A stretch of DNA of 8,953 bases from a virus (taxonomy: Duplodnaviria > Heunggongvirae > Uroviricota > Caudoviricetes). This document shows positions 1 through 8,953 of the stretch, piece by piece. Below the pieces are notes generated by a model. That model ran no database searches, was not told where the DNA came from, and saw nothing but the letters and a program-made list of their open reading frames with translations. Each line of letters starts with the position of its first letter. Position 1 is the stretch's first letter. Both the position numbers and the translations under genes were made by a program. The stretch spans positions 1 through 8,953 of IMG/VR virus record IMGVR_UViG_2778261447_000007. One strand, written 5' to 3'.

Positions 1-165
1 ATGACTCATGATGAACCCTGTTCCATGGCTCCAGATGACAAACATGATCTCATATCAGGGACTTGTTCGCACCTTCCCTAGCTCTACCCTGCGCCATGAA
101 AATGTCAATTCACATCTGAACTAATGCTCTTTAATCTAGTAACGTCTAAAATACCTAACATTTCC

Positions 166-579
166 TTAATAAAATGCCAGTACACGCTGCATAGCTTCGC
201 TCTTCCGGCACTCGCGACAGATTATATTCAGGCGCCTGTCGTAGCGGCGTATTTCTCCGTCTGGTAATGACCAGATAAGGTCAGGATCAACCACAACCGG
301 TTTTTTCACCTTTTCCCTTGATAGTTTTTTGCGGGCGTTTTGCCAGTCTTTACGCGCCTGCTCAGACGGGAATAATCCGTAGCCTGAATTGTATACATCA
401 CCACTGGCAACCAGCTCTCTGGCAAGAACGCTCAGCAGATATCTTGTCGCACCTGTTTTCGCTTCCAGTTGTCGTAACGTCTCGCGCCCGCTCTGTCGCA
501 CGAGTTCGACAACCTGCCCTTTAATTTTTCCCGCTCTTCTTGTGTAAATACTTTTGCCATAAGCGCCTCCGGCAATCAC
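166..579 (-). CDS. Hypothetical prophage protein (137 aa), function unknown
   Basis: Complete ORF on minus strand. No ATG available; GTG start at 579-577 overlaps the TGA stop of the upstream gene (GTGA coupling). Basic C-terminal half. No family recognised by eye. Confidence 0.45.
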   Translation of the reverse strand: MIAGGAYGKSIYTRRAGKIKGQVVELVRQSGRETLRQLEAKTGATRYLLSVLARELVASGDVYNSGYGLFPSEQARKDWQNARKKLSREKVKKPVVVDPDLIWSLPDGEIRRYDRRLNIICRECRKSEAMQRVLAFY

Positions 580-1346
580 TTTTCCGATACAACACGGCGG
601 GAAGAATCAGTAATCTGTCGAACAATATCCCGGTGCTTGTTCAGCTCCCGCAGCGCGGCGCAGACTCGCTCCCACTTCTGAACATGATTTTTCGCCCGAC
701 GCAATTCGCGGTTTGCCATATGCAGCGATGGTAAAACCAGGTCATCCGCTCGCGTTTCAGTAAACGATGGCAGCGACTGCACAATGTCCGCCACAGTATC
801 TGTTGTAATTTCTTCCTGTGTTGCAGCTTCCTGTACTGGTAACGCAACACCTGCTGGCTGAGGAAAGGCCTTACCAGCCGTTTTCGTTACCGGTGCAGCT
901 TTCGGCTCTGCCGGTAAATTATCGCCCGGCATGCAGTAACTAAATTTACCGTTCCGATTAACGCGTGCCAGCCGCCCCGTTGCGGTTACTACCGCCAGTG
1001 TGGAAGCAACCTTGCGAGTGCTGACACCGAACTTACCCGCCAGTTCCTCACACGTTTTAGCCCCCTCCTGACTGATAAACTCAATCATCATGTCTGCGGT
1101 AACTTTTTGTTCAACCTCCCCGGTCAGCATATCCTGTGCTTCAGATTTTACTGGTCGCTCTTCGGTTACCCGGGATTCACCTTCGCCAGCCAGAAACCAG
1201 ATGTGACCAGTTTTATCAACGAGGCCATTTCTTTTGAGTTCCCACAGCTCGTTCAGAACTTCTTCACGACTGATATCAAGTCGCGTAGCCAATTCTACCG
1301 ACGTGGCTTTTCCCATTGCTTTCAGTGCGTCTAAAACGGTTTCCAT
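576..1346 (-). CDS. Hypothetical prophage protein (256 aa) with two winged-helix-like segments; possibly DUF1627-like (YdaW-like)
   Basis: ATG at 1346; 23 bp downstream of the DnaC-like gene on the same strand. N-terminal 'SVELATRLDISREEVLNELWELKRNGLV' and internal 'CEELAGKFGVSTRKVASTLAVVTATGRLARV' look like wHTH units. Family assignment is from memory and uncertain. Confidence 0.5.
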   Translation of the reverse strand: METVLDALKAMGKATSVELATRLDISREEVLNELWELKRNGLVDKTGHIWFLAGEGESRVTEERPVKSEAQDMLTGEVEQKVTADMMIEFISQEGAKTCEELAGKFGVSTRKVASTLAVVTATGRLARVNRNGKFSYCMPGDNLPAEPKAAPVTKTAGKAFPQPAGVALPVQEAATQEEITTDTVADIVQSLPSFTETRADDLVLPSLHMANRELRRAKNHVQKWERVCAALRELNKHRDIVRQITDSSRRVVSEK

Positions 1347-1369
1347 TAAATTTTTTCTCCCCGATAAAA

Positions 1370-2116
1370 TTACTTTTCAATTCCTGGCTGACCGACATTC
1401 GCACGCCAGCTCTCCCAGTTAAAATTCACCCAGCGCCCACCGTTCATGGTCATGCGGTCCATCACGCGCCCGCCAAGCAGGGTGCTCATTGCGGTATGAT
1501 TCAGGTTCGTCAGCATCCCGACACTGCGCATCGCGGCTGTTCTGCGATCGACGATCTGGTTCAGTGTGACCTGTTCGTTGCGCGTATCACGCTGCATGCC
1601 AATCTCATCCAGAACCAGCAGGTCAACGTCACATAAACCCTGCAAAAATTTTTCGCCTGAGTTTTTGTTATCGTAGATGCCGTGTAGCGCCAGCATCACA
1701 TCAGCCACCGTGACCACAATCACGCTGCGACCTTTCGCCAGAAGATGATTACCGATGGCGGCTGCCAGGTGATTTTTTCCGGTACCCGGCTTACCGCTGA
1801 ACACGAAATTTGTGCATCCGGTTCTCAGTACGTCCGCGATGGATTTTGCCTGGCTCAGCGCATATCGCTGGCCGTCGTTCTGCACCCAGTAATTCGCAAA
1901 CGAACATTTGCGGTGCAACGGCTGGATACCGGAGCGATTCAGAATTTTTTCCACCCGTAACTGACGATTCTGACGGTTGATCTCCTCGCAACGTTTCTGG
2001 CCTTCCGCAAGTTGCCACTCACGCCACTCTTCTGCCGTCCGGTACGGCGCGGTTACATGCTGTGGTGCCAGCTTGCGGATACGTTCAAGAACACCTCCTG
2101 CCGCTATATTTTTCAT
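1370..2116 (-). CDS. DnaC-like replicative helicase loader (AAA+ ATPase, IstB/DnaC family)
   Basis: 248 aa. Walker A 'SGKPGTGKNHLAAAIG', Walker B 'DLLVLDEIG', and 'LNQIVDRR...GMLTNLN...RVMDRM' closely resemble E. coli DnaC as recalled. Starts 6 nt after the initiator gene stop. Confidence 0.9.
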   Translation of the reverse strand: MKNIAAGGVLERIRKLAPQHVTAPYRTAEEWREWQLAEGQKRCEEINRQNRQLRVEKILNRSGIQPLHRKCSFANYWVQNDGQRYALSQAKSIADVLRTGCTNFVFSGKPGTGKNHLAAAIGNHLLAKGRSVIVVTVADVMLALHGIYDNKNSGEKFLQGLCDVDLLVLDEIGMQRDTRNEQVTLNQIVDRRTAAMRSVGMLTNLNHTAMSTLLGGRVMDRMTMNGGRWVNFNWESWRANVGQPGIEK

Positions 2117-2122
2117 AATCCT

Positions 2123-3193
2123 TCACCCCCTGAAACCTGGTGGAATTTCGGTATCCGGTTCGGAAATATGATTCACACAACGCTGGTTGTTCGTCCCGCC
2201 AGTCGGGAGCAACCAGGGGTTTTCAAAATTCCGGTCAGGTCCAAAAAACGTTGTCGCCCGCTGAACAAATTCCGTTCCCGCTTTCCCGGTCGCCGCCAGG
2301 TACCTCGCGTAACGCCTCACACCATCCAGCATGACCTGCGGTGGCACCCCCTCGCGTAATCTGGCCTTCCAGGCACTGAAAGCGGATTTCTTCGGGTTTG
2401 CCCCGGCACGCAACGGGTATTCCCGCCAGACCTGTTCGAACACATCCGGATAATCCACTCGTCCCACAGGCTGCCCGGTGTTTTCCGGGACTACCCGATC
2501 GGCTTCCCGCTGAATCGCGGAATCGGCTTCAGGCTGCTGCAGTTGGTGTGATTGCTCCGACCCTGCGGTCATCGCCTGCTGCACAGCGCCCGAATCGGCT
2601 TTCAGCGCATACGCTGAATCGGCTTCCGGTGTCGTGCCTGCGGGCTGATCAGGATTGACGGTCTGAACATCCCCAGCCTGGTTCGTGGCGTTTTTCACGC
2701 CATGGACCATAGTGTTTTGATCTTCTTGATCTGTATCTTTATCTGTATCTTTATCTGTCGTGACTCGTCGTGACATGTGCGTGACATTTCGTGACGCGCC
2801 GTGACAATCGCCATTTTGTTCCCGCTTTCTTTCCCTCTCTCGCTGCGCCCTCTTGCGCTCTGCAGGAGATTTTGCGGTTTGCGAAATATTGCCGTTGTCC
2901 TCTTTCAGCACCTGGCGTTTTTCCCATCCAGTGATTAAATCACCATCAAGTACCCGCCCCTGCATCGTCTGCAAAATTGAATCAATCATCTCTTCTGTCA
3001 CATCGAGCGCACTTGCCAAATCCTCGGTCGTGACATCAATGTGACCTCGCGTGACATTTCGTGACGCGCTCACCAGGAGGTGGATATACACAGCCATCAC
3101 TGTTGCAATTGGCTGACCTGACACCCGGGCAATGGTTCGCCACTTGGGGTCATTTGGCATGTCATGCCATAATCTGAGCCAGGCATTAGCCAT
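2123..3193 (-). CDS. Phage replication initiator / replisome organiser with DnaT-like C-terminal domain
   Basis: 356 aa, ATG at 3193 with GAGG Shine-Dalgarno. C-terminus '...VNHISEPDTEIPPGFRG' resembles the C-terminus of E. coli primosomal protein DnaT as recalled. Central low-complexity linker is encoded by the iteron repeats. Sits directly upstream of the DnaC-like gene. Confidence 0.75.
   Translation of the reverse strand: MANAWLRLWHDMPNDPKWRTIARVSGQPIATVMAVYIHLLVSASRNVTRGHIDVTTEDLASALDVTEEMIDSILQTMQGRVLDGDLITGWEKRQVLKEDNGNISQTAKSPAERKRAQRERERKREQNGDCHGASRNVTHMSRRVTTDKDTDKDTDQEDQNTMVHGVKNATNQAGDVQTVNPDQPAGTTPEADSAYALKADSGAVQQAMTAGSEQSHQLQQPEADSAIQREADRVVPENTGQPVGRVDYPDVFEQVWREYPLRAGANPKKSAFSAWKARLREGVPPQVMLDGVRRYARYLAATGKAGTEFVQRATTFFGPDRNFENPWLLPTGGTNNQRCVNHISEPDTEIPPGFRG
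2729..2758. repeat. Tandem 12-bp repeat (ATCTGTATCTTT x2.5) in an AT-rich stretch with two GATC sites; candidate DNA-unwinding element of the origin
   Basis: ATCTGTATCTTT at 2729-2740 and 2741-2752, partial ATCTGT at 2753-2758; GATC at 2719-2722 and 2728-2731. Encodes the 'DKDTDKDTD' repeat in the initiator. Confidence 0.6.
2759..2805. repeat. Iteron cluster 1: five CGTGAC repeats with 10-11 bp periodicity (candidate ori iterons inside the initiator gene)
   Basis: CGTGAC at 2759, 2769, 2780, 2790 and 2800, one helical turn apart. Shares the 21-mer GCGTGACATTTCGTGACGCGC (2779-2799) with cluster 2. Confidence 0.7.
3029..3069. repeat. Iteron cluster 2: four (C/T)GTGAC repeats with 10-11 bp periodicity
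   Basis: GTGAC hexamers starting 3029, 3040, 3050 and 3060. The 21-mer GCGTGACATTTCGTGACGCGC at 3049-3069 is identical to 2779-2799. Confidence 0.65.
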
Positions 3194-3264
3194 ACTAACC
3201 TCTTCAGATACCGAATCTTTTTAATCACGTATTACCGAAAGAGATCCGGTATGAATATTGCCGA

Positions 3265-3690
3265 TCAATGCACAGCCACAGCATTTCCGGCCGGGCCACC
3301 ACGGTTGATCTGGTTGAAGCCAGCTATTGCCACCGCGACAAAATCATCAGCGTCTCTCACCAGTCGTTCCCGCATCTCCACCAGCTCCCGAAAATAAGCT
3401 GAACTGTGGCTGCGCATTCTGGCCACCAGCAAAGGTGGCATTGCCTTTTCGATCGCTGGTAACAACGCCTGAATTTTTTCAACTGCATCAGGGGTGTCTT
3501 TCTCTACCCAGCGGAAAATTTTCTGGGTATTACGCGCCAGGGCTTCAGGGTGGCTGTCGTCGTACAGTTCCGGGAACGTCATACCCAGTTCGAAATACGC
3601 TTTGGTAATTTTCGCAGCCGGTACTTTTTCGCCGTCCGGATGCGCCCAGGCATTCATCGCCATGCGGATGTGCTCATGTTTGATTTTCAT
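3265..3690 (-). CDS. ydaT: YdaT-like protein (141 aa; cII-analogue position in Rac-like prophages)
   Basis: ATG at 3690 overlaps the stop of the upstream Cro-like gene (ATGA). Position and size fit the second gene of the Rac ydaS-ydaT operon; N-terminus 'MKIKHEHI...' recalled as YdaT-like. Not verified by alignment. Confidence 0.65.
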   Translation of the reverse strand: MKIKHEHIRMAMNAWAHPDGEKVPAAKITKAYFELGMTFPELYDDSHPEALARNTQKIFRWVEKDTPDAVEKIQALLPAIEKAMPPLLVARMRSHSSAYFRELVEMRERLVRDADDFVAVAIAGFNQINRGGPAGNAVAVH

Positions 3691-3974
3691 GAATCAACCC
3701 CATCAACTTTTTTGGTGTTAAGCTCATATTTATGACTTGAAGGGGGCGTAATTCCGGTGTATTCCGGCCATATAAGATCCCAGTCATTCGGCCTCAACTC
3801 TCTTCTTGTAACATGCCCTGCAGTTTCTGCTTCTATCATTAACGCACGAACAGGAGACACTGGTGAACTGCCAGATGCCATTTGAGACAAGAAGGACGGA
3901 GACACACCAAGGTTGGCAGCAAATTTTTTTGCTTCTCCAGTTTTTAATGATTTGATGAATTCCTTTAGAGTCAT
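3687..3974 (-). CDS. ydaS: Cro-like HTH regulator (YdaS-like), first gene of leftward early operon
   Basis: ATG at 3974 (M12 of the 3687..4007 ORF, whose upstream start is TTG). 'LKEFIKSLKTGEAKKFAANLGVSPSFLSQMASG' is an XRE/Cro-type HTH. Divergent from the repressor gene. Confidence 0.7.
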   Translation of the reverse strand: MTLKEFIKSLKTGEAKKFAANLGVSPSFLSQMASGSSPVSPVRALMIEAETAGHVTRRELRPNDWDLIWPEYTGITPPSSHKYELNTKKVDGVDS

Positions 3975-4010
3975 GATTTCGATCTCAACATACTTTAGTG
4001 CAAGCAAAAG

Positions 4011-4038
4011 TTTATACGTAACTAAATAAACCAGTCAA
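4011..4038 (-). promoter_or_regulatory. pR-like sigma70 promoter for the leftward ydaS-ydaT-replication operon (TTGACT-N16-TATAAA on minus strand)
   Basis: Minus strand reads TTGACT (plus 4033-4038), 16-nt spacer, TATAAA (plus 4011-4016), about 35 nt upstream of the ydaS ATG. Near-identical to the promoter at 5463-5490. Confidence 0.6.
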
Positions 4039-4077
4039 GTATTTGCTTATTTCGCAATTACTAAAGATAATGCATGT

Positions 4078-4449
4078 ATGGAAACAAGAGAGATTCGGCG
4101 TTTACGCCTCAAAGAGTGGTTCAAAGACAGAACTTTGCCACCCAAAGAGAAAAGTTACTTATCTCAGTTAATGAGCGGTAAGGCTACGTTTGGCGAAAAA
4201 GCAGCTAGACGTATTGAACAAACATATGGGATGCCAGGGGGTTATCTTGATATTGAGCCAGAAGACATAACAGAGTCTCCATCATCAAGAGCTATAGCAT
4301 TAACCCCTAACCAGCTGGAATTGCTACAAATATTTAGTGCATTTCCTGATAATGAACAGCAAGAGATCATAAAAGAACTAAGAAACAAAAAAGAAGCAAT
4401 GGAAGATTTTGTCGCACGTTGGTTGGCGCAGCAAGGTCGCCGCGCCTGA
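4078..4449 (+). CDS. Prophage repressor candidate (RacR-like/cI-analogue HTH regulator, 123 aa)
   Basis: Divergent from the Cro-like gene across about 100 bp. HTH-like 'KSYLSQLMSGKATFGEKAARRIEQTYGMPGGYLD'. C-terminal module is homologous to the downstream PaaR-like protein. No Shine-Dalgarno; a GATAAT -10 sits 8 nt upstream of the ATG. Confidence 0.65.
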   Translation: METREIRRLRLKEWFKDRTLPPKEKSYLSQLMSGKATFGEKAARRIEQTYGMPGGYLDIEPEDITESPSSRAIALTPNQLELLQIFSAFPDNEQQEIIKELRNKKEAMEDFVARWLAQQGRRA

Positions 4450-4483
4450 TGGGAAGCATACTCTTAAAAACAAGATATATCAG

Positions 4484-4882
4484 ATGGGTGTACTCGAAAT
4501 TAGTGCTCTTAGAATTAGGAAGCTTTTGTTGGTAACAGGCTGGAGCCAGGCAGAACTTGCGCGCAGAATTGGCATTACTCAACAATCCGTTCAAAGATGG
4601 GTTTGTGGTATCTCAAGCCCTACAGCAGCTAATCTAGATAAACTATCTGAAGCAACAGGATATCCTCAGTATTGGTTCTTCTTACCGTTAAATGAAGAAA
4701 AAAATGACAGAATACAAGATATAATAAAAATAACTCCTAGGCAAAAGGAGCTACTTCAAACATTTGAGGCATTTCCAGAGGAAGATCAAGAGCAAATGCT
4801 TCAGGAGATGAAAGACAAAAAAGAGTTAATGGATCGCACAATTGAAAGATGGCTCGCTGCCCGGAAAGGGCATCGGGCATAA
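4484..4882 (+). CDS. paaR: PaaR-like HTH transcriptional regulator of a three-component ParE toxin-antitoxin system (paralogue of the upstream repressor)
   Basis: ATG at 4484 preferred over the TTG at 4409, which would overlap the upstream gene by 41 nt. XRE-type HTH 'WSQAELARRIGITQQSVQRW'. C-terminus 'ITPRQKELLQTFEAFPEEDQEQ...ERWLA' aligns with 'LTPNQLELLQIFSAFPDNEQQE...ARWLA' of the 4078..4449 product. Directly upstream of the antitoxin and toxin genes. Confidence 0.6.
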   Translation: MGVLEISALRIRKLLLVTGWSQAELARRIGITQQSVQRWVCGISSPTAANLDKLSEATGYPQYWFFLPLNEEKNDRIQDIIKITPRQKELLQTFEAFPEEDQEQMLQEMKDKKELMDRTIERWLAARKGHRA

Positions 4883-4911
4883 TGACCACCATACACAGAC
4901 GGAGGTGTGCC

Positions 4912-5103
4912 ATGAATACGGCCCTTTCACCAATGGTTTCTGAGTTTGAAACTATTGAACAAGAAAACAGTTACAACGAATGGCTGCGAGCCAAAGTAGC
5001 TGCAAGCCTTGCAGATCCGCGCCCAGCAATTCCCCATGACGAAGTTGAGCGCAGAATGGCAGAACGCTTTGCTAAAATACGCAAGGAACGGAGTGAACAG
5101 TAA
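4912..5103 (+). CDS. paaA: PaaA-like antitoxin (63 aa) partnered with ParE
   Basis: ATG at 4912 with GGAGG Shine-Dalgarno 6 nt upstream; TAA stop abuts the parE ATG. 'MNTALSPMVSEFETIEQENSYNEWLRAKVA...' matches the PaaA2 antitoxin of E. coli O157 paaR2-paaA2-parE2 as recalled. Confidence 0.7.
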   Translation: MNTALSPMVSEFETIEQENSYNEWLRAKVAASLADPRPAIPHDEVERRMAERFAKIRKERSEQ

Positions 5104-5388
5104 ATGTTACCTGTGTTATGGCTTGAAAGCGCAGATACCGACCTGGATGATATAACTAGTTACATTGCTCGTTTCGACATAGATGCGGCAGAACGCTTAT
5201 GGCAGCGATTAAGGGGGTGTGTGCTGCCATTATCCGAACATCCGTATTTATACCCCCCAAGCGACAGAGTGCCAGGCTTACGTGAGATTGTGGCTCACCC
5301 CAATTATATAATTCTGTACCGCGTGACAACCTCAAGTATTGAAATAGTAAACGTAGTCCATACCCGCCGACAGTTCCCTGTAACATAA
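5104..5388 (+). CDS. parE: ParE/RelE-superfamily toxin (ParE-like, 94 aa)
   Basis: Immediately follows the antitoxin stop. Size and sequence character ('LWLESADTDLDDITSYIARFD...IVAHPNYIILYRV') typical of ParE toxins. Confidence 0.8.
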   Translation: MLPVLWLESADTDLDDITSYIARFDIDAAERLWQRLRGCVLPLSEHPYLYPPSDRVPGLREIVAHPNYIILYRVTTSSIEIVNVVHTRRQFPVT

Positions 5389-5413
5389 CCCTCTGCCCAT
5401 CAACACAGCCTTA

Positions 5414-5441
5414 AACACTCTCAAAGAGAGTGTTATTTTTT
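5414..5441 (+). terminator. Rho-independent terminator ending the repressor/toxin-antitoxin transcription unit
   Basis: Perfect 9-bp stem AACACTCTC (5414-5422) / GAGAGTGTT (5426-5434), 3-nt loop, followed by A then T6 (5436-5441); 26 nt after the parE stop. Confidence 0.85.
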
Positions 5442-5462
5442 ACTGTTTAGTTAAGTTGTAGA

Positions 5463-5490
5463 TTGACTGTTAAGTTTATTTTTGTATAAA
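5463..5490 (+). promoter_or_regulatory. pL-like sigma70 early promoter (TTGACT-N16-TATAAA) directed toward the 72-aa ORF and RecE-like gene
   Basis: TTGACT 5463-5468, 16-nt spacer, TATAAA 5485-5490. Flanked by GTTAAGTT direct repeats (5450-5457, 5469-5476) and a TTTAGT motif shared with the pR-like region. Confidence 0.55.
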
Positions 5491-5678
5491 CTAATTTCAC
5501 CAACCCACCCCGCCCCACAGAACGCAGGGCAATACTTCGAGTTACCAGGCAGTGGTCAGGGGTTAAGTAGCCAGCCCGAGGCGTATGAACATGACGGCAG
5601 GGTTTAACTTTAACTATGCAGCAGGTTTTTGTTCCGCTACCCCGGCGTTAAGGGGAAACAGCACTGAGAGAAATCAGT

Positions 5679-5897
5679 ATGCAGAAGCGAGAACCCGTCA
5701 TCATCGCGCCAGACTATACCGATGATGAACTTTATGAGTGGATGCGCCAGAAAATTAAGGCAGCGCAGGACCTGAAATGGGCCAATGAAGCCAGGGCTAA
5801 GCAGGCTGAAAATCTGTCCGCTCTGGAGCAGGATATCACCAATCTGGAAAAAGCAGCGGCATTAAGCATTGCCAGAATGATTACATACCCGCGTTAA
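5679..5897 (+). CDS. Hypothetical small early protein (72 aa), first ORF downstream of the pL-like promoter
   Basis: ATG at 5679 with GAGAG upstream. Predicted helical, charged; 'ENLSALEQDITNLEKAAALSIARMI' looks coiled-coil-like. No Arg-rich N-like motif. Function unknown. Confidence 0.5.
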   Translation: MQKREPVIIAPDYTDDELYEWMRQKIKAAQDLKWANEARAKQAENLSALEQDITNLEKAAALSIARMITYPR

Positions 5898-6248
5898 TAG
5901 CTAACCAACGAAGCTAAGGTTGGTAATTAAGGAGTTCTCCACGGGTAAGGTGGAGTACGTGCGCCGGACACGGGTGAGCATCCGGCACTGACAGTTTACT
6001 GAAAGGATATTTCCCTGAAAAGTCAGACCATAACGCGAAAGCGCACGGCGAGGTAGCTGGTTCATAGATAGTCTGTCGTTAAATTTTCGTCGACCGTGCG
6101 CTTCCGGTTGTGGCACTCCGCGAAATGGCGCGGCGTAATCATGGCGGGGTACCCTTCCCCTTGAGGACACCGGGTTGTCAGGCTGACCATGCGCCTGAGT
6201 GACAACCCCGCTGCAACGCCCTCTGTTATCAATTTTCTGGTGACGTTT

Positions 6249-6291
6249 GGCGGTATCAGTTTTACTCCGTGACTGCTCTGCCGCCCTTTTT
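6249..6291 (+). terminator. Possible intrinsic terminator (GGCGG...CCGCC stem then T5), weak
   Basis: GGCGG 6249-6253 pairs with CCGCC 6281-6285, followed by C and T5 (6287-6291). Loop is long (27 nt, with an internal CAGT/ACTG stem), so non-canonical. Confidence 0.3.
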
Positions 6292-6295
6292 AAAG

Positions 6296-6443
6296 TGAAT
6301 TTTGTGATGTGGTGAATGCGGCTCAGCGCACGCGGAACAGTTAAAACCAAAAACAGTGTTATGGGTGGATTCTCTGTATCCGGCGTTAATTGTTAACTGG
6401 TTAACGTCACCTGGAGGCACCAGGCACCGCATCACAAAATTCA
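6296..6443. repeat. 17-bp imperfect inverted repeat pair (16/17) flanking a ~114-bp segment that contains tandem GTTAAC palindromes
   Basis: Left arm TGAATTTTGTGATGTGG (6296-6312); right arm CCGCATCACAAAATTCA (6427-6443) is its reverse complement with one mismatch. Interior has GTTAACTGGTTAAC (about 6393-6406) and CCTGG-aggca-CCAGG. Confidence 0.6.
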
Positions 6444-6460
6444 TTGTTTAGGACGCGATA

Positions 6461-6643
6461 ATGGAAACGTTATTACCAAACGTCAATACGTCTGAAGGTT
6501 GTTTTGAAATTGGTGTCAGAATCAGTAACCCTGTATTTACTGAAGATGCCATTAATAAGAGAAAACACGAACGGGAGCTATTAAATCAAATATGCATTGT
6601 TTCAATGCTGGCCCGTTTACGCCTGATGCAAAAAGGACGCTGA
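6461..6643 (+). CDS. Hypothetical small protein (60 aa)
   Basis: ATG at 6461, 17 nt after the right inverted-repeat arm, with AGGA upstream. Stop is 2 nt before the next ORF start. No family recognised. Confidence 0.4.
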   Translation: METLLPNVNTSEGCFEIGVRISNPVFTEDAINKRKHERELLNQICIVSMLARLRLMQKGR

Positions 6644-6645
6644 CA

Positions 6646-6837
6646 ATGAATACAGCATTTGCACTCGTTCTGACAGTTTTTCTTAATACAGGCGAACCAG
6701 TCGATCTTGTTATTGGTATACATGACTCAATGAAAGAATGCATGGCTGCCGCAGCGGAACAGAAAATTCCCGGCAACTGTTATCCGGTTGATAAAGTTAT
6801 TCGCATGGACAATAACGAAATCCCGGCTGGTCTTTAA
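6646..6837 (+). CDS. Small protein (63 aa) with hydrophobic N-terminus and conserved Cys; possibly DUF1482/YebW-like
   Basis: ATG at 6646 (M19 of the 6592..6837 ORF) with AAGGA Shine-Dalgarno. 'MNTAFALVLTVFLNTGEPVDLVIG...C...CYP' resembles YebW-type small prophage proteins as recalled. Uncertain. Confidence 0.45.
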   Translation: MNTAFALVLTVFLNTGEPVDLVIGIHDSMKECMAAAAEQKIPGNCYPVDKVIRMDNNEIPAGL

Positions 6838-6929
6838 AACAGTTCCGTAATAAACATCCGATTTCATTCTTATATGCCAGCAATGGCAGGGATTTGTTCA
6901 CCCTTAAATCTGTAATGAGGTAAAACAAA

Positions 6930-8953
6930 ATGAGTAAAGTCTTTATTTGCGCCGCCATTCCGGACGAACAGGCAATAAAGGAAGAAGGTGCAGTTGCTGT
7001 AGCCACTGCCATTGAAGCCGGTGATGAACGTCGCGCCCGCGCAAAATTTCACTGGCAATTCCTGGAACATTATCCGGCTGCTCAGGACTGCGCTTATAAA
7101 TTTCTTGTTTGCGAGGATAAACCCGGTATACCCCGCCCTGCCCTCGATTCCTGGGATGCTGAATATATGCAGGAAAACCGCTGGGATGAGGAGTCTGCTT
7201 CCTTTGTCCCTGTTGAGACTGAATCAGATCCGATGAACGCCACTTTTGACAAGCTGGCCCCTGAAGTACAGAACGCTGTCATGGTTAGGTTCGACGCATG
7301 TGAAAACATCACCGTTGATATGGTGATTAGCGCGCAGGAATTGTTGCAGGAAGACATGGCAACATTCGACGGACATATCGTTGAAGCGTTGATGAAAATG
7401 CCAGAAGTTAACGCCATGTATCCGGAGCTTAAGCTGCATGCCATCGGGTGGGTTAAACATAAATGTAAGCCGGGTGCAAAATGGCCTGAGATCCAGACAG
7501 AATTACGCACATGGAAAAAACGTCGCGAAGCCGAACGCAAAGAAACCGGGAAATACACGTCTGTTGTAGATCTCGCCCGCGCCAGAGTCAACCTACAGCA
7601 CACTGAAAACTCAGCAGAAAAAATCCACCCTGTCACTGCAGTCATTCGTCGCGAATATAAGCAGACGTGGAAAACACTGGATGATGAACTGGCCTACGCT
7701 CTGTGGCCTGGTGACATTGATGCCGGAAACATTGACGGCAGCATCCATCGCTGGGCAAAAAATGAAGTTATCGACAACGACCGCGAAGACTGGAAGCGTA
7801 TCTCGGCATCAATGCGCAAACAGCCTGATGCCCTTCGCTACGACCGCCAGACTATTTTTGGCCTTGTCCGTGAACGTCCGATCGACATTCACAAAGACCC
7901 TGTGGCACTGAACAAATACATTACTGAATACCTGACTACAAAGGGCGTGTTTGAAGATGAAGGAACAAATCAGAGCGCAACTGATACTCTCTCGTCGCCA
8001 GTACCAGAAACTGATGCAGTGGAAACGGCAATTCCGGACAACGAAAAAACCGAATGCAAAGTGGAAGTCGAACCATCTGTAGAGCGTGAGGGGCCGTTCT
8101 ACTTCCTCTTCACCGACAAGGATGGCGAAAAATACGGTCGCGCAAACAAACTTTCTGGTCTGGATAAGGCGCTGGCTGCCGGGGCTACTGAAATCACGAA
8201 AGAAGAATATTTCGCCCGCAAAAACGGTACATACTCAGGTTCACAACAAAATACTGGTGCATCTGACACGACCGCACAACCAGAGCCGGTAAAAGTTACA
8301 GCTGACGAAGTAAGCAAAATTATGCAGGCAGCCAATATCAGCCAGCCTGACGCCGATAAGTTGCTTGCGGCCTCTCGCGGTGAATTTGTTGCAGGGATTA
8401 GCGATCCGAATGATCCGAAATGGGTGAAGGGGATTGAAACCCGCGATTCTGTGAACCAGAACCAGCAAGAAACGGAACAGAACGACCAGAAAGAGGAACA
8501 AAACAGCCCAAATACGCAACAAAACGAGCCAGAAACGAAACAACCTGAGCCAGTAGCGCAACAGGAACCAGAAAAAGTCTGCACCGCCTGCGGTCAGACC
8601 AGCGGCGGCAACTGCCCTGATTGTGGCTCAGTAATGGGTGACGCAACATACCAGGAAACATTCAATGGAGAAAATCAGGCTGAATCTCAGGAAAAAAATC
8701 CGGAGGAAACGGAAGGCACTGAGCATCCGCACAAGGAGAACACTGGCGGCGCTCAGGGCCACGCCAGCGATAATAAAACTGGCGAAACAGAAAATTCCTT
8801 AATTAAGATGAACGGTCATCGTGAAATCACATCCACCAGCAGAGTATGGAATCACCTGTCAGTCGACCTTGAAACCATGGGAACCAACACCAATGCACCC
8901 ATAGTAGTTATTGGTGCGGTTTTCTTCGACCCGGAAACAGGGGAAATCGGGCC
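6930..8953 (+). CDS. recE: RecE-like (exodeoxyribonuclease VIII family) large early protein, 5' part only (674+ aa, continues past window end)
   Basis: ATG at 6930 with in-frame TAA at 6921 and GAGG Shine-Dalgarno; frame open to the end of the window. Central 'KLLAASRGEFVAGISDPNDPKWVKGIETRDSVNQNQ' and CxxC-x8-CxxC motif (8580-8624) match the non-catalytic middle of E. coli RecE as recalled. Last residues 'VDLETMG...IVVIGAV' (from 8862) resemble DnaQ-like exonuclease motif I. Confidence 0.55.
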   Translation, partial: MSKVFICAAIPDEQAIKEEGAVAVATAIEAGDERRARAKFHWQFLEHYPAAQDCAYKFLVCEDKPGIPRPALDSWDAEYMQENRWDEESASFVPVETESDPMNATFDKLAPEVQNAVMVRFDACENITVDMVISAQELLQEDMATFDGHIVEALMKMPEVNAMYPELKLHAIGWVKHKCKPGAKWPEIQTELRTWKKRREAERKETGKYTSVVDLARARVNLQHTENSAEKIHPVTAVIRREYKQTWKTLDDELAYALWPGDIDAGNIDGSIHRWAKNEVIDNDREDWKRISASMRKQPDALRYDRQTIFGLVRERPIDIHKDPVALNKYITEYLTTKGVFEDEGTNQSATDTLSSPVPETDAVETAIPDNEKTECKVEVEPSVEREGPFYFLFTDKDGEKYGRANKLSGLDKALAAGATEITKEEYFARKNGTYSGSQQNTGASDTTAQPEPVKVTADEVSKIMQAANISQPDADKLLAASRGEFVAGISDPNDPKWVKGIETRDSVNQNQQETEQNDQKEEQNSPNTQQNEPETKQPEPVAQQEPEKVCTACGQTSGGNCPDCGSVMGDATYQETFNGENQAESQEKNPEETEGTEHPHKENTGGAQGHASDNKTGETENSLIKMNGHREITSTSRVWNHLSVDLETMGTNTNAPIVVIGAVFFDPETGEIG

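Follow-up and report, generated by a model that had tools for sequence, protein, structure and literature searches.

A probable lambda-type replication origin inside a prophage initiator gene, with a second iteron cluster in the codons of the predicted DNA-binding domain

The window analysed here is a stretch of 8,953 nucleotides (nt) from a virus of the class Caudoviricetes (IMG/VR record IMGVR_UViG_2778261447_000007, positions 1 to 8,953), and the element in question lies within its gene for a phage replication initiator (Table 1). Two clusters of a short repeated site, or iteron, were found in this gene: one (cluster B) abuts an AT-rich tandem repeat, and the other (cluster A) lies upstream of it, in the codons of the predicted N-terminal DNA-binding domain (N-domain). 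Judged from the sequence of the window and of its relatives, the region is probably a lambda-type replication origin of a lambdoid prophage, located inside the initiator gene and accompanied by a second iteron cluster that is itself under selection. That an origin might be embedded in the initiator gene, as the lambda origin is in O, had been proposed in an initial annotation made from the letters of the window, and the idea is supported by the identity of the gene, the position of the repeats and the polarity of the AT-rich region.

On the strand presented, which is the complement of the gene strand, GTGAC starts at positions 2760, 2770, 2781, 2791 and 2801 (spacings of 10, 11, 10 and 10 base pairs (bp) within 2759-2805) and again at 3030, 3041, 3051 and 3061 (11, 10 and 10 bp within 3029-3065). 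The nine copies in two clusters at 10-11 bp spacing that the initial annotation described were thus recovered from the motif positions, as was the identical 21-mer GCGTGACATTTCGTGACGCGC common to both clusters, at 2779 and 3049. The copies had been called hexamers, but GTGAC is a pentamer; the conserved hexamer core is CGTGAC (GTCACG on the gene strand), which is present in eight of the nine. The distance between the clusters, given as about 270 bp, measured 260 bp in register and 229 bp between the nearest iterons. In gene coordinates cluster A spans nt 129-164, or codons 43-55, and 33 bp beyond its last repeat, in the direction of the gene, there is a single core in inverted orientation (2997-3001). 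Tandem Repeats Finder, a check that had been suggested with the annotation, recovered both the iteron array (a 10-bp unit repeated 4.9 times at 2757-2806) and the AT-rich repeat (the 12-bp unit TCTTTATCTGTA repeated 2.9 times at 2724-2758). There was no overall enrichment of GTGAC in the window, with 22 occurrences observed and 14.8 expected. The largest same-strand cluster within 50 nt held five copies; in 2000 first-order Markov simulations the largest cluster held one, two or three copies in 1246, 743 and 11 runs respectively, and none of the pentamers of the window clustered better than GTGAC.

The repeats are translated, and the reading of them as NVT or RVT at the iterons and DKDTDKDTD at the AT-rich repeat was borne out by the translation of the open reading frame, the peptides from the repeat region being ASRNVTRGHIDVT, ASRNVTHMSRRVT and TDKDTDKDTD. 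A repeat period of 10-11 bp does not correspond to a whole number of codons, and the four copies of cluster A are read in three frames, as A-S-R, N-V-T, R-G-H and D-V-T. Relatives of the N-domain were found at 39 loci (given L numbers below) in Gamma- and Betaproteobacteria, in genes with a guanine plus cytosine (GC) fraction of 0.37-0.68, and the domain is highly conserved across them. Codon choice was analysed in 20 non-redundant homologues of the GTCACG type, with a median nucleotide identity of 70%, almost all of which have GTCAC at nt 129, 139, 149 and 160. The codon for Ser44 was TCA in 19 of the 20 (background 0.16), and all 20 used GGT for Gly50 (background 0.22), GTC for both Val47 and Val54 (background 0.19) and ACG for both Thr48 and Thr55; several codons were used for Arg49 and Asp64, which lie between the cores. 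For invariant residues the majority-codon fraction was 0.92 inside cluster A as against 0.52 outside it (Mann-Whitney P = 2e-5). The inverted copy is created by the codon for Val65, which was GTG in each of the 17 homologues that have a valine there (background 0.23).

In cluster B the cores are kept within a poorly conserved linker, and in two homologues (L012 and L028) the last B repeat and the next repeat are read in a different frame, the DNA having been kept. Comparison with orthologous initiators, which the initial annotation had recommended as a way of seeing whether the repeat count varies, showed that it does, with 3-6 iterons in cluster A and 3-5 in cluster B. Insertions in the cluster A loop, of 7, 14 or 22 residues, are whole iteron units (L006, L031 and L038), and the gaps between the clusters in the homologues are 209-247 bp, with one of 319 bp. 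On these codon and frame data the repeats are DNA elements and not peptide repeats.

Lineages that differ at residues 44-56 of the initiator carry another iteron word, and they carry it in both clusters. The word is GTAACG in L026, L030, L036 and L038 and CGAACG(C) in L033, L035, L037 and L041, and GTCACG occurs in other arrangements in L029 and L031. In L030, which is of the GTAAC type, the codon at the inverted position is GTT and generates GTTAC, the inverse of GTAAC. An automatic test took the pentamer with the longest chain phased at 9-12 bp in region B of each locus and asked whether the same word also forms a phased chain in region A; this was so for 29 of 37 non-redundant loci, and the density of the B word was 1.70 per 100 nt in region A compared with 0.036 in the remaining gene. 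Of the neighbouring genes and the domains of the initiator, only the N-domain always accompanied a given iteron word. The upstream YdaT protein (83-97% identical), the DnaC-like loader and the C-terminal domain (C-domain) of the initiator are found with three iteron sets (those of the window, L044 and L045), and no YdaT homologue was found at the GTCACG loci outside the enterics. In E. coli 042 the window-type N-domain and iterons are joined to a DnaT-like C-terminus and followed by a lambda-P-like gene. The loop at residues 44-56 was considered as the sole determinant of specificity and is kept only as part of the bolder reading described below; it varies with the word but tolerates insertions of 7-22 residues, and the basic helix at 107-126 varies between groups too. 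As a separate observation, two loci from a Serratia metagenome-assembled genome (L040) and from Pantoea (L042) are without cluster A and have ACTACG/GTAGTA repeats at gene nt about 300-700; their conserved N-domain is joined to another C-terminal part (YVYFV...GISSNPWAR) that is possibly GIY-YIG-like.

The same layout was found in initiators with an unrelated N-domain. In O157 prophages the C-terminal module of the window, at 90% nucleotide identity, stands behind an N-domain without detectable similarity to that of the window (hhalign probability 0.5%), belonging to the WP_001205823 family and represented by L044, in which the initiator gene occupies 1501-2592 on the minus strand. In this gene AAGGGGCTT repeats occupy nt 172-199 and recur at nt 444-466, where a purine-rich (GAACAG)n tract follows them. 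Across the O157-type genes there are 2-4 AAGGGGCTT repeats inside the N-domain coding sequence and 2-3 more about 255 bp downstream; the downstream cluster occurs in either orientation and is opposite (AAGCCCCTT) in many lineages. The upstream copies encode EGASKGL, and among 34 non-redundant relatives from viral contigs (contigs L047-L126) the codons were GGG for Gly in 34 (background 0.26), GCT for Ala in 30 (background 0.24) and CTT for Leu in 32 (background 0.17). The O157-type genes therefore resemble the window in their C-terminal module, DnaC-like loader and two-cluster design, and differ from it in that cluster A lies in another part of the N-domain. A third type of N-domain (L045) has a single repeat region.

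The AT-rich repeat abuts cluster B at about nt 435-475 of the gene, coincides with the lowest GC fraction within the initiator gene (0.30, at 2720-2759), and is predicted to be the DNA-unwinding element. A similar repeat follows cluster B in every iteron-specificity group, the 3-5 copies of the homologues always abut a AGATAAAGATAAAG-type repeat, and the number of AT-rich units differs even between the close relatives L003 and L004. It is also the recombination joint between the N- and C-terminal modules of the gene: partial matches in E. coli genomes break at query positions 596-614, corresponding to 2718-2736 of the window. This mosaic joint fits an arrangement in which the N-domain would set the specificity for the origin and the C-domain that for the loader, as in lambda O (PMC6022878). 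The AT-rich tandem repeat and two GATC sites of the initial annotation are both real, but the GATC sites (2719 and 2728, on the C-terminal-module side of the joint) are not conserved, since the versions in E. coli 042 and E. albertii do not have them, and GATC is not enriched in the window (26 observed, about 35 expected). Control through GATC methylation by Dam was rejected on these grounds. Just past the AT-rich repeat there is a 13-pair inverted repeat at 2679-2709 (TGGTTCGTGGCG...CGCCATGGACCA), and GC-rich inverted repeats of the CCCCC...GGGGG type occupy the corresponding place in many homologues and in the P22 origin. No known RNA family was found in the origin region.

The initiator matched phrog_3729, 'replication initiation protein', from end to end (E = 1e-250) and its C-terminal half matched phrog_1701, 'DnaD-like helicase loader'; its RefSeq name is 'phage replisome organizer'. 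No Pfam family was found for the 356-residue protein at E <= 0.01, which places it outside the lambda O family (Phage_rep_O) and its N-domain outside Phage_rep_org_N (the SPP1 G38P type) as Pfam defines them, and the label 'DNA replication protein O' that appears in phage records is a name given by annotators. Among PHROG families, two named 'replisome organizer' were matched weakly (phrog_4880, E = 9e-6; phrog_5968, E = 3e-4), and a distant kinship of the N-domain with Phage_rep_org_N is possible. A search of solved structures by sequence returned only faint DnaT-like matches, to the C-terminal parts of homologues. The protein would consist of a predicted N-terminal DNA-binding domain, a basic helix, a disordered linker encoded by the candidate origin, and a C-terminal domain that recruits the helicase loader. 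In an AlphaFold2 model of residues 1-160 the core had a predicted local distance difference test score (pLDDT) of 80-92, whereas residues 128-160 scored below 50, the chain being disordered from 128. The modelled N-domain has helices at 4-11, 16-25, 29-45, 56-63 and 67-77, a hairpin at 78-87 and the basic helix at 110-126, a winged-helix-like arrangement, even though the matches from a fold search were weak. Cluster A encodes the end of helix 29-45 and the loop 46-55, and cluster B and the AT-rich repeat encode the disordered linker.

Two further features of the C-terminal module were noted. Four copies of (G)AATCGGCTT on the plus strand (AAGCCGATTC on the gene strand) lie at 2498-2629, in the linker 90-220 bp past the AT-rich repeat, as two pairs with 24 bp within and 96 bp between pairs; they code for EADS/KADS/EADR, are present in the O157-type genes too, and could be either a peptide repeat or a second type of site. 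The last 12 codons (2123-2160) encode the tail S-x-P-D-x-x-I-P-x-G-F-R-G, which is common to initiators with otherwise different C-domains, matches the end of the primosomal protein DnaT faintly (E = 0.0015) and may serve as a short motif for docking.

In lambda O the annotated iterons or origin occupy gene nt 349-433, in phi80 gene 15 nt 365-441 and in P22 gene 18 nt 353-497, and in all three an AT-rich stretch, purine-rich on the gene strand, comes next. As in these phages, the candidate origin falls within the gene for the initiator and separates the part for the N-domain from that for the loader-binding C-domain, and cluster B and the AT-rich repeat have the same place and polarity. Its distance from the start codon (nt 389-470) is comparable to that in lambda (349-472). 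It has the parts expected of a lambda-type origin: it falls in a linker within the gene (the segment with pLDDT below 50), it contains at least three repeated sites (five copies of GTCACG, as short direct repeats and not 18-bp inverted ones), and an AT-rich region of 30% GC adjoins the iterons on their downstream side. In lambda the N-domain of O is the part that binds DNA and the C-domain the part that binds P, and the O protein still functions when in-frame deletions are made in the AT-rich part (PMC6022878); as here, the gene recombines at the origin, and the specificities for origin and loader assort separately (PMC6022878, PMC8022706). The differences are as clear. The window has 10-11 bp head-to-tail repeats with a 6-bp core, whereas each of the four lambda iterons is an 18-bp inverted repeat to which an O dimer binds; the initiator, which has no Pfam match, is not a detectable homologue of lambda O; and its loader is DnaC-like where that of lambda is P-like. 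Finally, there is a second cluster 229 bp upstream, in the N-domain coding sequence, which lambda, phi80 and P22 do not have. Repeated 7-mers of the origin recur in the coding part for the N-domain in the window but not in those three phages, so that among these four the second cluster is a new feature. The initial annotation had called the bipartite arrangement unusual, and so it is in comparison with lambda, phi80 and P22, each with a single cluster; it is not unique, however, being the rule in this family and present in an unrelated one.

Two separated groups of one iteron that serve one initiator are also known from iteron plasmids (P1 incC/incA, F incB/incC and the 5+3+1 iterons of RK2), in which one group adjoins the AT-rich region that opens and the second acts as a control locus. 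The plasmid groups, of 17-22 bp iterons, flank the rep gene or are non-coding, whereas in the window both groups are translated and one lies inside the codons of the DNA-binding domain. Nearer in form than lambda is gene 18 of phage L, a lambdoid initiator gene with six imprecise 11-bp direct repeats (TGTCCAACGGA), for which an origin was proposed from sequence alone (PMC8022706). As described there, the phage L gene resembles that of the window in containing direct repeats as short as about 11 bp, and differs in having another repeat word, another protein and a single repeat region (PMC8022706).

The explanation that we consider likely is that the N-domain binds GTCACG iterons in head-to-tail order; with a repeat at each helical turn, the proteins would line up along the same face of the DNA. 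If the lambda O-some is a guide, the array assembled on cluster B would strain and open the AT-rich repeat at 2719-2758, and, as the domain and gene content suggest, the C-domain would then bring in host DnaB by way of the DnaC-like loader. Cluster A, with the inverted copy, would be a second set of sites for the initiator; most likely, additional initiator bound there would touch the initiator on cluster B, with the roughly 230 bp between them looped out, and this contact would either build a larger origin complex or limit firing. Help from cluster A could also consist in a trapped loop or in the loading of newly made protein in cis. Since it has been lost in one lineage and is absent from lambda, phi80 and P22, cluster A would be accessory. 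A bolder version, which we think improbable, is that cluster A is a working half of the origin and not a spare set of sites, and ties the protein to its own template and its specificity to the sequence. By the time the origin is translated the N-domain is already complete; it would load in cis onto cluster A of the newly transcribed DNA, bridge to cluster B and fire the origin, and, as cluster A is translated into the variable loop 44-56, a change of word could rewrite the loop so that the specificities of site and protein shift together.

A possible alternative, to which we give less weight than to the two-cluster origin but more than to any other account, is that cluster B and the AT-rich repeat are the whole origin and that cluster A exerts negative control, by titration, handcuffing or, when occupied, a roadblock to transcription of the initiator and loader genes, a form of autoregulation. 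This overlaps the explanation preferred here and differs from it only in the sign of the effect of cluster A. It is consistent with the loss of cluster A from a lineage that keeps cluster B beside the AT-rich repeat (L032, L034 and L039), with the working of lambda, phi80 and P22 on a single cluster, and with the position of cluster A, since a roadblock would be well placed in the gene's first 200 nt. In P1 (incA), F (incC) and RK2, control iterons pair with the origin ('handcuffing'), and the conserved inverted copy at cluster A (GTG at all 17 valines, GTT in L030) recalls the inverted half-iteron operators at the F repE and pSC101 repA promoters. There is, however, no promoter at cluster A, the candidate promoter of the operon being about 850 bp upstream; the 28-33 bp that separate the inverted copy from its partner are a long distance for a dimer operator; and activation and inhibition would look the same in the sequence.

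The remaining accounts deny the initiator its sites. That the repeats serve another protein such as YdaT, as an antisense promoter (of the lambda pRE/paQ or oop type) that depends on an activator, is very unlikely, because YdaT does not track the word and the promoter matches are at chance level. The case for it is that lambda CII binds direct repeats 10 bp apart and that GTGACA resembles the -35 hexamer TTGACA (a scan listed GTGACA-16-GACAAT at 2781-2808 on the plus strand). An antisense oop-type RNA also lies near the start of the initiator gene in lambda, P22 and phi80 (PMC6022878). Only two promoter-like sites were found, however, where 2.3 were expected; the same YdaT stands upstream of three unrelated iteron words, and is missing from the GTCACG loci outside the enterics; and a promoter would leave unexplained the identical word beside an AT-rich repeat at the position of the lambda origin. 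Least credible is that the repeats are a by-product, either of peptide repeats (NVT/RVT) maintained at the level of the protein or of a duplication whose remnants gene conversion has kept alike. Both clusters encode SRNVT, and in the same frame, which together with the shared 21-mer fits duplication or conversion, and no residue from 44 to 55 varies within the GTCACG group. The by-product account is contradicted and largely refuted by the codon data: the period is 10-11 bp with three frames within one cluster, synonymous positions are frozen at the iteron cores only, the DNA of cluster B is kept across a change of frame, the loop grows by whole iteron units, and an unrelated family has the same layout with another word and the same freezing of codons.

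Several results weigh against the interpretation of the region as a lambda-type origin with a second, selected cluster. In a low-GC lineage (L032, L034 and L039) there are two degenerate B repeats and cluster A is not recognisable, so cluster A is not indispensable. Because the coding sequence of the N-domain contains cluster A, iteron word and N-domain are bound to be linked to some extent. DNA binding by the N-domain is something that we infer, since the domain has no Pfam match and a fold search gave only weak matches to winged-helix regulators (MarR/MepR, E about 0.2). No clear helical phasing was seen between the clusters, the steps between lineages being mostly 9, 12 and 21 bp and the independent events few. 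A conserved hairpin after the AT-rich repeat, as in lambda, was dropped as a candidate when local DNA folding energies were not below those of control windows from the same genes. No match to the IHF consensus was found in the window, and DnaA-box-like matches were at chance level in it, with none in the origin. A literature search found nothing on this initiator family or on a second intragenic cluster, only general accounts of the lambda, Stx-phage, P22 and L origins.

Table 1. Features of the initiator region and the neighbouring loader gene (positions in the 8,953-nt window; gene nt counted in the initiator gene).
Feature	Position	Strand	Description
Replication initiator gene	2123..3193	-	Open reading frame, 356 residues; phrog_3729 match
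N-terminal domain coding sequence	2816..3193	-	Residues 1-126, predicted winged-helix-like fold and basic helix 110-126
Iteron cluster A	3029..3065	-	Four GTCAC(G) repeats on the gene strand, gene nt 129, 139, 149, 160
Single inverted iteron core	2997..3001	+	Gene-strand GTGAC, codons Val65-Thr66, tenth copy
Iteron cluster B	2759..2805	-	Five GTCACG repeats, gene nt 389, 399, 409, 420, 430 (span nt 389-434)
AT-rich strand-asymmetric tandem repeat	2719..2758	.	Gene strand AAAGATACAGAT, about three copies, codes for DKDTDKDTD, 30% GC
C-terminal module of initiator (linker and C-terminal domain)	2123..2718	-	Exchanged independently of the origin and N-domain module
DnaC-like helicase-loader ATPase gene	1370..2116	-	Directly downstream of the initiator, same operon

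The genes around the initiator are those of the cro/cII-like early operon of a lambdoid prophage: upstream of it are genes for the cII-like YdaT and the cro-like YdaS, then divergent repressor-like genes. The loader gene matched PF01695 (IstB_IS21, E = 6e-17) and phrog_50, and among NCBIfam models PRK12377 (E = 3e-146) and the DnaC equivalog (E = 4e-91, below the cut-off of that model). The loader is not always found beside the initiator, since in L003 and L004 (E. coli VG48B2 and SK0832) a DUF977 gene follows the initiator directly, without a DnaC-like or DUF1627 gene between them. In the window the DUF977 gene (166-579, minus strand) is downstream of the replication genes; its counterpart in the prophage of E. 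coli GF60 is annotated as frameshifted. Elsewhere in the window, 6235-6286 (plus strand) is a full-length match to the DicF antisense RNA (Rfam RF00039, 76.7 bits, E = 5e-16), a small RNA of Qin/Rac-type prophages that inhibits cell division, and 8460-8563 is a tandem repeat of five 21-bp units (AACGAGCCAGAAACGCAACAA, 71% matches), at the position of which the related GF60 prophage has a gene for a RecE-like exonuclease.

Across the initiator region that was searched (2123-3300) the GF60 prophage is 100% identical to the window, and seven isolated E. coli phages, among them Tritos and Evi, carry the module at about 94% identity. In four Pseudomonas phage records (PQ758389, PQ758388, PQ738200 and OR683406) the homologous initiator region is annotated as two hypothetical proteins, which suggests that the gene has been split or mis-called across the repeat-rich linker. 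The module matched 2238 of 5426 complete E. coli genomes, which would make this one of the commonest prophage replication systems of E. coli, yet it is unstudied.

Origins inside initiator genes are known from lambda; here the sites would also lie inside the codons of the DNA-binding domain. If selection holds iteron sites in these codons across Beta- and Gammaproteobacteria, as the sequences indicate, the family is a natural case of one stretch of DNA carrying two codes. The co-variation means that the iteron word of an initiator can be read from its own gene, and reading such words would help to predict whether prophages and satellites that share a host are incompatible in replication or cross-activate one another. 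The GTCACG, GTAACG and CGAACG lineages provide natural specificity variants for studying how short head-to-tail iterons are recognised. Because protein and site are separable, the role of cluster A, whether in looping, in control or in loading in cis, could be isolated by synonymous recoding. And if cluster A were indeed a working half of the origin, the occurrence of the same design in an unrelated family would point to a general solution for the replication modules of mosaic phages.

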